From the sequence record NZ_CP118918.1: DNA of 64,000 bases, one strand, 5' to 3'. Numbering within the stretch: the stretch's first letter is position 1; every line of letters starts with the position of its first letter. The position numbers are program-made. This DNA comes from a plasmid. Below are positions 42,001 through 60,000 of the stretch, one piece after another.

Positions 42001-45000
42001 CGACCGTGACCGCGACGAGCAACGTCGGGTAGCCCAGCAACGGCGCGACCGCAAGGTCCGCAACAAGCTCAGTCGCGTCGTGGACGTCCTTGACGAGCTG
42101 CTCGGCCCCGGTGAGCAGCAGCCCCGTTGCCTCGGTGAGGTCGCGGACTTCTATGGCGTGAGCCAGTACCGGCTCTCAGCGGTGCTTGAGAAGCACCGCG
42201 ACGAGTTCAGCCGAGATGGTTGGCAACCGCATCACCGTGGCCACGACGGGCACGACCTTTGGACTGACCGTGCTGTCGTACGAGCAGGACTGCTACTGGA
42301 AAAGTCCTCTGTAGCAGCCCATCTGCGGCACCTGCTCGGTGTAGGAGATATTCCGCTGGTGTACTCCCAAAGTGATGCCCGCCTGGCTGAATGCCGGCAG
42401 CTCTACAACAAGGCTCTGACGGTCGTTGCTGATATCCACGGCGAGTCCAGCACCGACGATCTGTGGCGAGCAATGCAGGGTGCGGATCGGTACGACCTGA
42501 TGGCGATGGTGATGACCTTGGCCTCCCTGACCCCCTACGACCGTCCCAGCTTGGGGCAGTGGCTACGCGACATCAGCGCCCTCACCACAAAGGACGGCAG
42601 TATCGCTCGCGGTCTGGCGCTGCTGATCCCTCAACGTCAAGCTATCGATGCGCGAAAACTCAAAGAGTCCGGGTCCGCACGATCGCACAGAGCGCGGGCC
42701 GACGACGAAGGAGCGGTGTGCCAATGAGTTCCGCGTCCCACGCTCGCTCACCGATAGCCGAACGGCGTACTCGCGCTGAGCAGACCGAACGGCAGATTGC
42801 CTGCCTGTTACCTCCGCACACCCACTACGTTCAACCACTCTCGGGAACGCTGGAAGTTCTGCTTCACAAGCCGTGCAGCCCGCTAGAGACGGTCAATGAT
42901 GTGGATTCCGAGCTGGTCACGTTCTGGAGGGTCCTACGCGATCGGCCCGACGACCTTGCGCGGGCCTGTTCGTTGACCCCGCACTCGCGGGTGGAGTTCA
43001 CCTCCGCGATTAGCGGTTCCCGACTTCCTCGTGACACCAACGAGGTGGAGGTTGCCCGACGAGTATGGGTCCGGCTCAATCATAGTCAAACTGGTGCTGC
43101 GCGGATGCGTCCGCAATGGCAGAACACCGCAGCGCACCGCAGGACGGCGCCGGGCCATGATACTGCCATTGCTCAGATGACCGAGGTCGCCACCCGAATC
43201 AAGAGGGTGAGCCTGGAATCGGCCGCTCCTGTGGAGCTGATCGACTCGGTTGCGCGCCAACCCGGGGTGTGCATCTACCTCGACCTGCGAACCGAGGTCT
43301 TCGGCGCCCAGGGCGCCAGTCTCATCCATCACGCACGCGTCGACCCGACGCAGGTACTTCGGGCCGCGTCGAAGGCGAAAGCTGCCGTCGTGATCCGCGC
43401 CGAGCGCGATACGGTAGCGCACAGTCCTGTACACAGCTGGGCGTGCACGCCAGTGGGGGAGCACCGGGATAGCGCCACGGTGCACTTGTGGTCAAACCGT
43501 GTGCTGTCGATGCAAGAGCGTCTTTTCGACCTTGGCGACTACGGGTGGGCAGCAACGTGACCACAGCCGACACCATCGCTATTCGCGAGCAGCTGGTCGC
43601 GGTGTTGCGGGCCGCCGAAGCACCGATGACTAGCGCCGAGCTGGCCAGCGTTCTACCGTGGCAGACCCACCGTCTCGATGTGGGCTGCGAGCTGGTGTGT
43701 CACGCACCTCGCCGGCCCACGGCGATGCGGGTGGTCGAGTGTCATCGAACCTGGCATCTGGTGAGTCGTCCGCGGTCCTCACAGGACTCGCGCACAGGGA
43801 TATATCGACATCTGAGGAGCTTGGCCCGTGCAGGGACCATCCGATCGATTGCATTGGGGCCGAGAAAAGTTCAGTGGGAGTTCGTAGGTGAATAGGAGAG
43901 TGACGATGAGCAGGATCACCGTGTACACCAAGCCCAACTGCGTGCAGTGCACCGCGACGTTCAAGGCGCTCGACAAAGCGGGCATCACCTACGCGAAAGT
44001 CGACATCAGCGTCGATGCCGAGGCCCGCGACTACGTGATGGCCCTGGGCTACCTGCAAGCCCCCGTCGTGGTGGCCGGCGATGAGCACTGGAGCGGCTTC
44101 CGACCCGACCGCATCTCCGAAGTCACGGCTCCAGCACTCGCGCAGCTATCCATGTAGCGGTACAAACACTAGCGGGAGAAGAAGACCTCATGACAGTCGT
44201 GGCGACCCCGTTTCAGGTCGGGGAACACGTGGTAGACGATGTGCATTGCCTTGAGGGACAACAGATTCTCCGAGAGGCCAAAGCAGCGAGATCACGCCCG
44301 CTGTGTTTGTGCCAGCCCGCCGGGGTACAGATGTATATCGCTGCCGCTGGCGACAGCCTCATTGTCAAACGAATGCCCGGCACGGCGGCCGCACATGACC
44401 ATCGGTGCCGGTCGTGGCTGCCTCCCAGCGAGCTATCGGGCTATGGCGCCGTTGCCGACCGGTCGATCGTTGACAACCCTGCCGACGGAACAACCACGCT
44501 GCGACTGGGATTTTCGCTGTCGAAGTCCGGCAATCGTGCCGCTCCAGAGCCTTCCGGATCGCCGGCAAGCGCGGTGCAGTCGGACGGCAACAAGTTATCC
44601 CTACGCGCTGTGCTGCACTATCTCTGGGATGAGGCGGAACTGACGACGTGGCACCCGGGCTTTGCGGGGCGGCGGCCGTGGGGTGTGGTGTACCGCCGGC
44701 TCCGGGATGCCGCCGATGGCAAGCTAGTCCGCAAAAGCCCCTTCGCCGCATCGTTGTTCATCCCGGAGCCCTTCTCGGCCGACTGCAAGGCCGAGATCGA
44801 GCAACGCCGGATTAAGGCTTGGGCTCCAGCGCGTAGACAGCCGGGGAAGCCCACCAAATTCCTGATCGGCGTGGGCGATATCAAGGCGATTGAGCCAGCC
44901 GCCCACGGGTTCAAGATGCAGGTCCGCCACCAGCCGGGCCACCCCTGGTTTCTCGATGAAGACCTGTACCGAAAAATGACCAAGCGCTTCGCCACAGAGC

Positions 45001-57000: not shown

Positions 57001-60000
57001 CCGCGACCGAGCAGTTGCGCATGCATTGAGTTCAGGTAGACCATCTGGCCGACGTAGCCGATGGATTCCATTGCCATGCGCCACGCCTGGAAGGGCGGCC
57101 AGAACACCACGTCGACCACGTTCTCCACGATCACGGCGCGGTACATGTGGTACTCGGAGAAGCGCACGACATCCCACATGGTGGCGCGGGAGCGCTCGGC
57201 GGCGGCCTCGGGGAGAATCTCGCCGAACAGATCCGGTTGGGCGTCTTGACGTTTGCGGCCCTGGGCGATGCTGTGCTTGGTGCAGCTCGGGCTGGCCCAC
57301 AGCAGATCAGTGGTGGGGAACAGACGCGGGTCAATCTGGGAGAGGTCGGCCTGAATGTGGTCGGTGTCAGGGTGATTGGCGCTGTGGGTTTCGATGGCCC
57401 TGTCCCAGTGGTTACTGGCGACCCTGGCCACGACGTTGTTGATCATCACAGCACCAGCCGTGGAGCCTCCAGCGCCGCAGTAGAGGTCGGTGATCGTCAG
57501 CATGGGGGGGTCCTCTCAACAATGGGTGATGGCTATAGCCTACCACAGAATGGATGGTGATAGCCATCCAATATGTGGGGCTTGTGGTTAGGTCAGCTGG
57601 TCAAATAGGTCGAGCTGAGCGTCGGCACCGAGGTCGAGAACGCGGCGCAGCAGGGCGTCGGCCTGTTCGTGCATCTCTGTGGTGCGGCGGTAATGCTCGC
57701 GGTCTTCCTCGTCCGTGGGGTGGTAGCGAGAGCATGGTCGGCTGTGTGCGTTGGGGGGCGTGCGGGCGTGGGGGCAGCGGCACCACTGCCATGTGCGGTG
57801 CTGCTCGGCTCGGGTCGCGGTCAGCAGGTCAGCTATCTGGCTGCGCAGCGCGGTTGGCAGGGCCTGTCCGAGTCGTTGAATCTGAGTGGCGGTGACCGTG
57901 GCACGCGGGGGGCCGGAGCCGGGGCGGGGGCTGATGAACTTTGATCCGACGGTCCAGTAGCTGGTCATCCAGTCGGGTGCGCCGTGGGGGGCGGTCGGGC
58001 CGCTGGCGCCGCCTGCGCGGGCCAGCAGGGATCGCAGTGCGCGTTCCTCGAGGAATGCGTCCAGGAGGGCACTGCCTGATGATCTGCCGACGAACGCCAG
58101 GAGGTGGCGTTGGTCGGGTGTCAGCGTGGGGCGCATGCGCACAGCCTGACGAGGCAGTGCCGGTGGGCGCTCATGCGGGCATCGCTGTTGCATCGGGTGC
58201 GGATACCGCAGGGTTGCCGGCGGCCTTGATGCGGTCGGGTCGGAAGCCGCTCCAGTGATCATCGCCGGCTACCACGACGGGGGCTTGCAGGTAGCCCAGG
58301 GCCATCACGTAGTCGCGGGCCTCGGCATCGACGCTGATGTCGACTTTCGCGTAGGTGATCCCCGCTTTGTCGAGCGCCTTGAAAGTCGCGGTGCACTGCA
58401 CGCAGTTGGGCTTGGTGTACACGGTGAAGGTGGACATAACGCGCCTGCCTTTCTAAGTGGATGGCTATAGCCTACCATTAAAGCTAGGGCAAGTCAACGG
58501 GAAAACGGCCCTGAACTGGACCATTCGCGACACCTAAGGCCGCGACAGGCTCGACGCGAGCAGGCATGCGATGTCCGTGTCCTTCTTCTATCCAGGCGTA
58601 GTTCTACTGACGCGGGCACGGCTGAGGCCGGACGGATCGTAGGAAACAGCGGGAGGGGGCCCTGAGTGCATGACCGGCCAGTCCGGACATCGCGAACCTC
58701 GTGGGCCGCCGCAGGGGCCACCGCCTGCCGGCAGGTCGCGGTCTCTACATCCATCGTGATCAACAGATGATGGTCCAGGTTCCGACCTAAAACTGCCGGC
58801 CGGCCGGCAGCGTCTGTGAAATCGGTGGGATTCTGCAAGGCCGGTTATTTTTCGAAAGCGTTGGTAGGTGCTCCATCCCTAAGGTGTTTGCGGCCCGCCC
58901 CTGAGAGAGGGGCTAACTACGACGCATCCGTCGCCACAGTGCGGTGCGTATGCCGAGCCTCTCGGTCGTCCCAGCACAGAAAGCTCGAATACCTATATGA
59001 GGGTACAGATTTGATGTTCCCACGTGTTCTCGCCGTCGTGGCCAGCGCACTGCTGACACTATTGCTGGCCGGCTGCACAGGCGACTCTGCAACGCCCAGC
59101 AATGAGCGTGGCGTCCCGGCCGCGCCACGGCCATCGGGCCCTGCTGGACATTCCGTGGACACCGTGACCCTGCAATTTTGCGGCCACAACCTTGATCCCA
59201 GTTGCACGCCGGGCAGCTATGTCGGGCCGTTCGTGTCGCTGACCCCCAACGGCGGGCATTGGGACGCCAACGGTAACCCCGTCAACGGAGGCCCGGTCGG
59301 CGCTGACGGTTCCACCGGCAACAACCTCACCCAGGAGTACTGCGCCCGCAACCAAGACCCCGCCTGCCCGATCGGCACTTTCGTTGCACCCAACGCGATC
59401 AAGAATCCCGACGGAAGCCACACCTACGTCGTCTGTGAGGGCACCATCTGCACCAACCCCAACCACGGCGGCGGTGATCCACCAGGGTATTGGGACGCCA
59501 ACGGTAACCCCCTCAACGGAGGCCCAGCCGGCGCTGACGGTTCCACCGGCAACAACCTCACCCACGACTACTGCGCCCGCAACCAAGACCCCGCCTGCCC
59601 GACCGGCACCTACGTCGCACCCAACGCGATCAAGAACCCCGACGGCACCAACAGCTACGTCGTCTGCGACGGCACCATCTGCACCAACCCCAACCACGGC
59701 GGCGGCGACGACTGTGACGGCACCATCTGCACCAACCCCAACCACGGCGGCGGCGATACACCCGACACTGACACCACTCCCGGCGACGACTCCATCGACA
59801 CCGACGAACCCAGCGATGCCGGCACAAATGACACCGGAGACACCGACCCGCCACCTGATTCCGACGATGGCCCCGCATTCGACGACACCCCGGAAAGCTC
59901 CAACGACGATGGTGTCATCGACGACACACCACCGGATTTCGACGACAGCACCGACACCGGCAGCTTCGACGACGGAAACTAGATGCGTGTGACGTGCTCG

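Follow-up and report, generated by a model that had tools for sequence, protein, structure and literature searches.

A 200-Nucleotide Inverted Repeat Shared by Two nrdH Genes of a Mycobacterial Conjugative Plasmid as a Probable Gene-Conversion Tract

The plasmid sequence record NZ_CP118918.1 was analyzed over a stretch of 64,000 nucleotides (nt), in the following referred to as the window, with a focus on two inverted nrdH genes of the glutaredoxin family, designated copy 1 (c1) and copy 2 (c2). The window belongs to a conjugative plasmid of mycobacteria that is pRAW-like; its closest finished relatives are pSMC-8_2 (93%), djl-10_1 (87%), and pSMC-4_1. Both nrdH genes are nearly identical over a central stretch of 200 nt and unrelated outside of it. 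As judged from the comparison with related plasmids, this repeat very probably represents a gene-conversion tract, and not a module that was acquired twice.

Two nrdH Genes Sharing a Central Core

A repeat search within 42–60 kb of the window yielded one inverted pair only, consisting of two arms of 200 nt with 98% complementarity and a spacing of 14,112 nt between them (Table 1). Pairwise alignment of the arms, performed with 200-nt flanks, placed four mismatches at core positions 44, 68, 158, and 170, with identical runs of 43, 23, 89, 11, and 30 nt within the repeat. A match of 200 nt at 98% is far beyond chance. The initial annotation had described near-identical inverted nrdH copies bracketing a segment with relaxase, HNH nuclease, and dcm genes. 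The full alignment bears out the first part of this description, with the boundaries moving by 1–2 nt only, and the gene content of the segment was confirmed by matches to MOBF/TrwC, to HNH families of PHROGs, and to PF00145.

The two genes are convergent in orientation, and the identity begins and ends abruptly inside both open reading frames (ORFs), while the promoters, the first codons, and the C-terminal tails are unrelated. Outside the core, c1 and c2 differ at a random level, namely, at 35 of 54 positions upstream and at 35 of 55 positions downstream. Over the first four codons, c1 encodes MSRI and c2 encodes MSTF, and the C-terminal tails read ISEVTAPALAQLSM in c1 vs. IKAAGNPAVSAPDATAMPA in c2.

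A CVQC redox motif and a WSGFRP motif are the defining traits of the NrdH family. Both copies feature the motifs ...KPNCVQCTAT... and ...HWSGFRPDRI..., match the glutaredoxin Pfam family PF00462, and score above the cut-off (85.75 bits) of the NCBIfam model TIGR02194 (NrdH), with 105.3 bits for c1 and 104.1 bits for c2. Below this cut-off are the unconverted copy 1 of djl-10_1 (76.1 bits), described in the next section, and the corresponding gene of p20-157661 (74.9 bits). Chromosomal mycobacterial NrdH proteins are approximately 80% identical to the plasmid copies. No ribonucleotide reductase gene (nrdI, nrdE, or nrdF) is annotated within the 30–41 kb neighborhoods of four relatives, and none was detected among the window ORFs covered by a scan that was not exhaustive. 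Copies c1 and c2 appear to be orphan plasmid-borne NrdH copies without linked nrdEF. The presence of two NrdH genes on a conjugative element had been regarded as odd, but NrdH-like genes occur on 392 plasmid records, mainly from Rhodococcus, Mycobacterium, Arthrobacter, and Gordonia; an NrdH gene on a plasmid is ordinary, and the two-gene glutaredoxin-family layout is ancestral to this plasmid group.

Probable Conversion Tracts in Related Plasmids

The origin of the shared core can be traced by means of the plasmid djl-10_1. Its gene at position 1, i.e., at the place of c1 (L002:7353-7616), is homologous to window c1 in its upstream region, head, and tail, the two flanks being 67% and 55% identical to the flanks of window c1 vs. 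approximately 35% to c2 flanks. The core of this gene differs from every other copy at 72 of 200 positions (64% identical), whereas the core of window c1 differs at only 4–12 of 200 positions from c2 genes (94–98% identical), including the c2 of djl-10_1 itself. The c2 core type is common to djl-10_1, M. tusciae, M. vanbaalenii BC8_1, and GF69, the c2 flanks of which are orthologous, and between plasmids the c2 core is conserved at 92–97% vs. 73–87% for the c2 flanks. Since the flanks of window c1 are orthologous to those of djl-10 copy 1 and its core is of the c2 type, the core of c1 is most probably a conversion tract, for which c2 was the donor.

Further evidence was obtained from a 31-mer scan of species-representative genomes, which revealed two more two-copy contigs (Mycobacterium sp. 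smrl_JER01, in the following JER01, and M. tusciae DSM 44338), as well as several single-copy loci. The core exists in two flavors differing at 12–15 sites; the distance between c1 and c2 cores within one plasmid is 0–5, with values of 4 for the window, 2 for JER01, 5 for SMC-8, and 0 for M. tusciae. In M. tusciae, the c2 core represents the second flavor (N..V..ADDQ..M..DD), 12–15 sites away from the flavor of the window, and its c1 combines a c1-type upstream region and tail with a start region and core identical to its own c2 (0/200 differences). Likewise, JER01 and SMC-8 possess private variants at core sites 84 and 86 that are common to both of their own copies.

The tracts were distinguished into three types by their endpoints. 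Type E1 covers the core only and was found in the window, SMC-8, SMC-4, JER01, and one metagenome-assembled genome (MAG). Its ends coincide with CATCACCGTGTACA and CCCGACCGCATCA, which are the only identical runs of at least 13 nt between the unconverted paralogs. Type E2 covers the start-codon region and the core, as seen in M. tusciae (L007). Type E3, present in at least six independent assemblies (metagenome plasmids L012–L017), consists of the c1 upstream region and head, followed by the core and the whole c2 tail to the stop codon, and then by DUF1173. All detected transfers run from c2 to c1. This pattern indicates that conversion took place at least three times in the plasmid group and ended at different sites, and c1 and c2 show concerted evolution of inverted paralogs, as in tufA/tufB. 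The proteins P0010 and P0006, in which a c1 head is joined to a c2 tail, were also considered as inversion junctions; this was rejected, because their genes occupy position 1, with DUF1173 coming next, and they represent longer conversion tracts.

Duplication in the recent past, or the twofold uptake of a module with the repeats as its boundaries, the latter having been proposed in the initial annotation, would fit the mosaic structure of these plasmids. For instance, pSMC-4_1 shares its left part up to the relaxase with pSMC-8_2, its right part being different and without copy 2, and the identity of the window to SMC-8 is uneven, with approximately 97% on the left vs. approximately 89–91% on the right. 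However, the mosaic breakpoints between relatives fall away from the arms, and the shared DNA is restricted to 200 nt within coding sequences, with no common flank, promoter, start region, or tail. Moreover, where a relative has two genes that are only 64% alike, each of these genes still has flanks orthologous to those of its counterpart in the window, the cores co-vary within plasmids, and no transposon ends or target-site duplications were seen flanking the arms. Acquisition in duplicate is thus considered very improbable. A locus of an M. bacteremicum MAG (L008), with other sequence upstream of c1, was examined as a candidate module boundary and turned out to be an insertion of approximately 1.47 kb (L008:2142-3613). 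This insertion is located directly upstream of nrdH copy 1, overlaps by 9 bp at window 43900–43908, and resembles an insertion sequence (IS) element.

As another way to keep the two copies alike, a conserved NrdH core could be under strong purifying selection, with no exchange of sequence. NrdH is indeed highly conserved, as is evident from the identity to chromosomal mycobacterial proteins mentioned above and from the c2 core being better kept between plasmids than its flanks. Selection on the protein, however, cannot give 98–100% nucleotide identity, third positions included, where unconverted paralogs are 64% identical, nor can it cause each copy 1 to carry the variants of the copy 2 on the same plasmid, which are specific to the lineage and in part synonymous. 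We therefore regard this explanation as extremely improbable.

Several observations weigh against gene conversion in the simple form given above. The unconverted ancestral state is known from one plasmid only, djl-10_1, which has a third NrdH-like place besides positions 1 and 2, and the copy 1 of which could itself be a replacement. In p20-157661 and in the M. dioxanotrophicus plasmid, a glutaredoxin of the divergent djl-10 class (CVQCRATAR...WAGHRPDR) is located at position 2 and not 1, directly upstream of the 182-aa gene that also follows c2, and the history of the two glutaredoxin classes is more tangled than a division into a c1 type and a c2 type. Furthermore, a first conversion at 64% identity, with identical runs of at most 14 nt, is difficult for classical RecA-mediated recombination; it may have depended on template switching or have started from an ancestor that was less diverged. 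It is also possible that the donor resided on a co-resident plasmid rather than on the same molecule. A more tangled deeper ancestry does not alter the conclusion that the two window copies are nearly identical owing to a recent conversion tract.

Proposed Course of the Conversion

The proposed course of events starts from two old glutaredoxin-family paralogs in convergent orientation, of which copy 1 ends a type IV secretion system (T4SS)-like operon and copy 2 heads an operon composed of nrdH, a hypothetical gene, and dcm beyond the relaxase. The center of c1, from approximately codon 4 to approximately codon 70, would then have been overwritten by c2, leaving the ribosome-binding region, the first codons, and the C-terminal tail of c1 unchanged. 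Donor and recipient are assumed to have been located on the same molecule, and the exchange between the arms may have occurred by RecA-dependent non-crossover repair or, alternatively, by template switching. The first event could have used the conserved blocks of 13–14 nt, and later events the 200-nt identity already made. Once the cores were alike, further exchanges with other endpoints would have taken place in separate lineages, so that each copy 1 would track its own copy 2.

In functional terms, the same NrdH redox core (CVQC ... WSGFRPDR) would be made from two differently regulated genes, c1 presumably being co-transcribed with the T4SS-like operon and c2 being transcribed from its own putative promoter at the head of the nrdH–dcm operon next to the relaxase region. 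As no plasmid nrdEF was detected in the regions covered, both NrdH proteins presumably act together with the ribonucleotide reductase and thioredoxin reductase of the host.

Possible Inversion of the 14-kb Block

Besides gene conversion, and possibly coexisting with it, the repeat may be a working inversion substrate, as was suggested in the initial annotation. By crossing over between the arms, the 14-kb block containing DUF1173, relaxase, HNH, and dcm genes would be turned around, giving two natural isomers of the plasmid. Mechanistically, such an event is expected at a low rate. A repeat of 200 bp with 98% identity is long enough for RecA-dependent recombination. If true, inversion would reorient oriT and the relaxase relative to the transfer machinery of this pRAW-like plasmid. 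That the repeat works in this way is a substantial possibility that nevertheless falls somewhat short of being probable.

The inverted isomer is predicted to possess two junctions, one joining a c2 head to a c1 tail and the other joining a c1 head to a c2 tail. Haplotypes were defined by the c1 (1) or c2 (2) state at the four mismatch sites in core order. Both reciprocal junctions occur in public assemblies, with 99.8–100% identity to the window outside the repeat. The first one (protein P0125, 36 contigs) comprises the c2-outside flank, haplotype 2-2-1-1, and the c1-inside flank from DUF1173 onwards; in contigs L033–L040, the reverse complement of window 59623..58228 is joined to 43916..49667, and seven of the eight listed contigs show this haplotype. 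The second one (protein P0150, the exact predicted reciprocal protein, 24 contigs) comprises the c1-outside flank on the T4SS side, haplotype 1-1-2-2, and the c2-inside flank with the 182-aa gene and dcm; contigs L041–L050 follow the window to 44115 and continue with the reverse complement of 58427..56900, with haplotype 1-1-2-2 in nine of the ten listed. Neither L033, a metaSPAdes contig of 10.7 kb from ERZ11425560 with a k-mer coverage of 25.5, nor L034, a contig of 7.2 kb from SHEN23-1 (SAMN35319274), is easily dismissed. In addition, other crossover intervals were observed (L037, L047, P0128, and P0151), and inversion-type junctions were detected in other lineages (L018, L019, L021, L022, and L025), including a tusciae-type junction on the 5.3-kb contig L025. 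The contig L033, which represents the best-supported inversion-type junction, also features an IS256-like (Transposase_mut) insertion in the relaxase gene (L033:6949-8380; window 49660–49667) with an 8-bp target duplication.

However, the inversion is missing from all finished plasmids and isolate contigs, including pSMC-8_2, JER01 contig_5, M. tusciae NODE_20, and the 157-kb M. chelonae plasmid contig. Collinearity with the window at both junctions was found for pSMC-8_2, djl-10_1, p20-157661, JER01, and M. tusciae, and at the left junction only for pSMC-4_1; the orientation of the relaxase relative to the T4SS genes is the same in SMC-8, SMC-4, djl-10, and p20-157661. To compare parental and recombinant junctions, index blocks of public contigs were classed by their longest contig (<2, 2–5, 5–10, 10–20, 20–50, and 50–200 kb). 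In this order, the parental c1 junction (P0121) was represented by 61, 27, 10, 3, 27, and 15 blocks (n = 143), the recombinant junction P0125 by 31, 4, 1, 1, 0, and 0 blocks, and the recombinant junction P0150 by 24, 5, 0, 0, 0, and 0 blocks. A longest contig of at least 20 kb was thus reached by 42 of 143 parental vs. 0 of 66 recombinant blocks (Fisher p = 1.5e-8). Alternative orientations among homologous plasmids, which the inversion would lead one to expect, did not appear: the finished plasmids, the isolate contigs, and 42 of 42 blocks of at least 20 kb show the orientation of the window.

The recombinant junctions are confined to contigs of up to 10.7 kb from short-read metagenomes or SRA runs, and the recombinant proteins originate from metagenome and Logan assemblies only, never from NCBI genome records. 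Among contigs below 2 kb, recombinant junctions account for approximately 47% when the parental c1 junction alone serves as the reference, a proportion roughly equal to that resulting from random joining across an unresolved repeat. The recombinant contigs with stated coverage are mostly at 0.4–3x, and the commonest switch is located in the 89-nt identical run, where a de Bruijn graph with k < 89 is also ambiguous. In the sample giving L033, the reciprocal junction is absent among the contigs listed. In an unbiased JGI scan, many contigs were found to terminate within the repeat (L024, L027, L029, and L032), and seven long parental contigs all show haplotype 1111 with c1 flanks. No site-specific recombinase or integrase domain was identified among the ORFs of 43.4–59.9 kb.

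Taken together, most of the recombinant junctions are best explained as assembly chimeras. The proposal of the initial annotation stands insofar as the repeat is in principle a substrate for inversion and both junctions were found, whereas the flip as such is plausible but undemonstrated as a natural isomer, the junctions being seen on short contigs from short reads only. The existence of a real inverted lineage is rated as slightly less probable than its absence. A further reading, considered unlikely, holds that the repeat is kept as a homologous-recombination switch by recurrent, directional c2-to-c1 conversion, which would have become fixed separately in several lineages of the plasmid. 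The switch would flip the block of relaxase, oriT, and leading region against the ESX/T4SS backbone. If so, the two isomers would deliver opposite plasmid halves first to a recipient, and L033, L034, and the 2211/1122 junctions would be real inverted lineages. As part of the same unlikely reading, the conversions could occur via intrastrand pairing of the arms in single-stranded DNA transferred during conjugation.

Apart from the question of natural isomers, a practical warning results from these data, namely, that the repeat yields reciprocal chimeric junctions in a large share of low-coverage metagenome assemblies, and these may be mistaken for structural variation. Chimeric NrdH sequences, with one head and the other tail, were also noticed in the public protein collection (P0003, P0004, P0007, P0018, P0021, P0124–P0130, P0150, and P0151), at least a part of which have probably arisen when assemblers passed through the 200-nt repeat. 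Caution is therefore advised for metagenome-based protein-family statistics. More generally, finding nearly identical inverted repeats in a mobile element does not by itself imply that a module was duplicated or that a switch is present.

Upstream Regions of the Two Copies

The two nrdH copies are preceded by different putative expression signals. Upstream of c1, a ribosome-binding-site-like GGAGAG is located 10 nt past the stop codon of the ORF before it, and a promoter-like site specific to c1 was not found there. The promoter-like site upstream of c2 (Table 1) consists of a -35 hexamer TTGACT (58497–58492), a 17-nt spacer ending in TGG, and a -10 hexamer TAGGCT (58474–58469), corresponding to TTGACT-17-TGgTAGGCT, and its hexamers are kept in seven of the seven c2 upstream regions compared. 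A generic sigma-70 scan around both copies called no promoter-like site, the c2 site included. The terminator scan around both copies returned a single terminator-like site, no more than shuffles gave.

A 10-nt palindrome, GGCTATAGCC (58472–58463), overlaps the -10 hexamer of the c2 promoter-like site, and had been interpreted as a palindromic operator of c2. The palindrome as such is present, but its position reads GGCTATAACC or GGCTATGGCC in relatives, i.e., it is not conserved, unlike the promoter hexamers, and comparable palindromes with arms of 5–6 nt were also found upstream of c1. The case for an operator is therefore weak, and the candidate was rejected.

Plasmid Context and the Bracketed Block

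The features of the region are summarized in Table 1. From the left to the right arm, the bracketed block encodes DUF1173, a Dam methylase stub, an IstB fragment, an Imm1 gene, DUF2510, and the relaxase, followed by a 214-aa ORF, the HNH-like ORF, a DUF4192-like ORF, dcm, and the 182-aa gene. In all long contigs and finished plasmids, the next gene after the position-1 nrdH is that of DUF1173. For the HNH-like ORF, no Pfam match was obtained. The search for oriT-like inverted repeats in 53000–53200 returned no arms of at least 6 nt, and an oriT candidate was neither located nor confirmed.

Table 1. Coordinates of the nrdH copies, the repeat arms, and neighboring features in the window.
Feature	Position	Strand	Evidence
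Left arm, putative conversion tract inside nrdH copy 1 (recipient copy)	43916..44115	+	
Right arm, core of nrdH copy 2 (putative donor copy)	58228..58427	-	
nrdH copy 1 (c1), 83 aa, last small gene after the T4SS-like operon	43906..44157	+	
nrdH copy 2 (c2), 88 aa, heads the operon nrdH, 182-aa hypothetical gene, dcm	58171..58437	-	
Promoter-like site upstream of c2	58463..58497	-	Read from sequence only
DUF1173 gene, inner neighbor of c1, marks the parental left-arm junction	44190..45398	+	PF06666, E 3e-116
MOBF/TrwC relaxase-helicase, 1970 aa	47125..53037	-	TrwC E 1.4e-76, AAA_30 E 2.8e-50
HNH-endonuclease-like ORF, 175 aa	53849..54376	+	phrog_1872, 3593, 6254, 826, 4842; E 2.7e-11 to 3.9e-5
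C5 cytosine DNA methyltransferase (dcm-like), 513 aa	55962..57503	-	PF00145, E 3.8e-21; same annotation in relatives
182-aa hypothetical gene, inner neighbor of c2, marks the parental right-arm junction	57588..58136	-	phrog_12222, E 1e-27

Within the block, a stretch of lower GC content (45395–46423; 59–61%) comprises the Dam methylase, which is cut to a 70-aa N-terminal stub, an IstB_IS21 fragment (approximately 45685–45939), and the Imm1 immunity-protein gene (46007–46423, minus strand). In SMC-8 and SMC-4, an intact DNA adenine methylase is present at the place of the stub. Another segment of approximately 320 nt (54664–54989), next to or within the DUF4192-like ORF (55073–55690, minus strand), matches dozens of mycobacterial plasmids at 77–89% nucleotide identity, including those of M. 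avium, M. intracellulare, and M. marinum pRAW, with 3–9 places per plasmid there vs. one in the window. This segment appears to be a conserved, repeated plasmid element.

To the right of the block, the ORF at 58816–59982 (plus strand) features a lipobox-like signal (LLLAGC) and has no Pfam or NCBIfam match. It contains repeats (59254–59708) composed of two tandem units of 231 nt with 92% identity, plus an extra unit of 48 nt, and the encoded protein shows a Cys-rich motif (CxGTICTNPNHGGGD) and an acidic tail rich in Asp, Thr, and Pro. The contig L033 stops within these tandem repeats. Far to the left, just upstream of the ESX region, an IS605-family OrfB/TnpB gene (OrfB_IS605, Cas12f1-like TNB) was identified at 5980–7224 (plus strand), with 88% nucleotide identity to a copy on p20-157661.

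Distribution in Public Data

The exact c1 protein (P0121) is represented by 143 index blocks of public contigs, and the exact c2 protein (P0149) by 93 contigs. Both were found together on one contig of 157 kb, and the source names attached to either protein include a Mycobacteroides chelonae plasmid; both also occur in many metagenomes. The M. chelonae isolate with this plasmid holds the protein records WED89750.1 and WED89761.1. Since the same structure is present in the finished pSMC-8_2 and in contigs of up to 157 kb, an assembly artifact of the window is unlikely.

The plasmid was also observed at 99.8–100% identity in very many unrelated metagenomes (loci L030 and L033–L057). As guessed from the study labels alone, their sources comprise sewage (MUNK22-1), human skin (OHJU14-1), the TARA ocean, and others. 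This wide spread suggests either an extremely widespread environmental host or water- or reagent-borne mycobacteria contaminating the libraries.

Comparison with Known Systems

NrdH-redoxin is the hydrogen donor of the class Ib ribonucleotide reductase NrdEF. In line with this family, c1 and c2 pass TIGR02194 and carry the CVQC site and the WSGFRP(D) motif; in contrast to it, no nrdE or nrdF was seen in the annotated neighborhoods of the relatives or among the window ORFs scanned. Regarding a possible inversion, two well-known systems can be compared. The yeast 2-micron plasmid forms inversion isomers by means of the site-specific FLP/FRT recombinase and repeats of 599 bp, and plastid inverted repeats of 10–25 kb flip-flop, with both isomers being equimolar. 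As in these systems, the plasmid is a circular replicon with two inverted repeats whose recombination would give two isomers. Unlike them, it has no recombinase gene in the block and a repeat of 200 bp only, and one orientation dominates the reliable assemblies.

The pRAW-like family combines an ESX locus, T4SS-like genes, and a relaxase on one conjugative plasmid (Ummels et al. 2014, PMC4173767). The window likewise carries an ESX/type VII locus (EccB, EccC, PPE, EccD, MycP, EccE, and EccA), T4SS-like genes (SLT, a VirD4-like coupling protein, a VirB4-like AAA_10, and a TcpC-like gene), and a large relaxase. Its closest relatives, however, originate from rapidly growing or environmental mycobacteria (SMC-8, djl-10, M. 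tusciae, and M. chelonae; 86–93%), whereas the nucleotide similarity to pRAW (HG917973) is limited to short segments; short matches were also found to pMAH135. NrdH or glutaredoxin genes go unmentioned in the pRAW paper (PMC4173767).

The closest parallel for the conversion itself is provided by the inverted tufA and tufB genes of Salmonella enterica, which are kept in step by gene conversion that is processive and depends on RecA (Abdulkarim & Hughes 1996 and Hughes 2000, as cited in PMC5485169). Both pairs have in common that inverse paralogs on one replicon are near-identical by non-reciprocal, contiguous tracts stopping where the homology stops, and that the same repeats could in principle invert by crossover. 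The two pairs differ in scale: the nrdH genes are approximately 250 nt long vs. 1185 nt for the tuf genes, and lie 14 kb apart on a conjugative plasmid vs. 762 kb on a chromosome. Moreover, and unlike tufA/tufB, the nrdH copies are homogenized over the central 200 nt only, with distinct heads and tails, the unconverted state is 64% identical, and all transfers run from c2 to c1. Gene conversion between inverted paralogs is thus a process already known, and the nrdH pair is a further case of it. It represents a clean natural case of concerted evolution on a conjugative plasmid, for which public sequences offer both the unconverted and the converted state as well as three or more variants of the tract.

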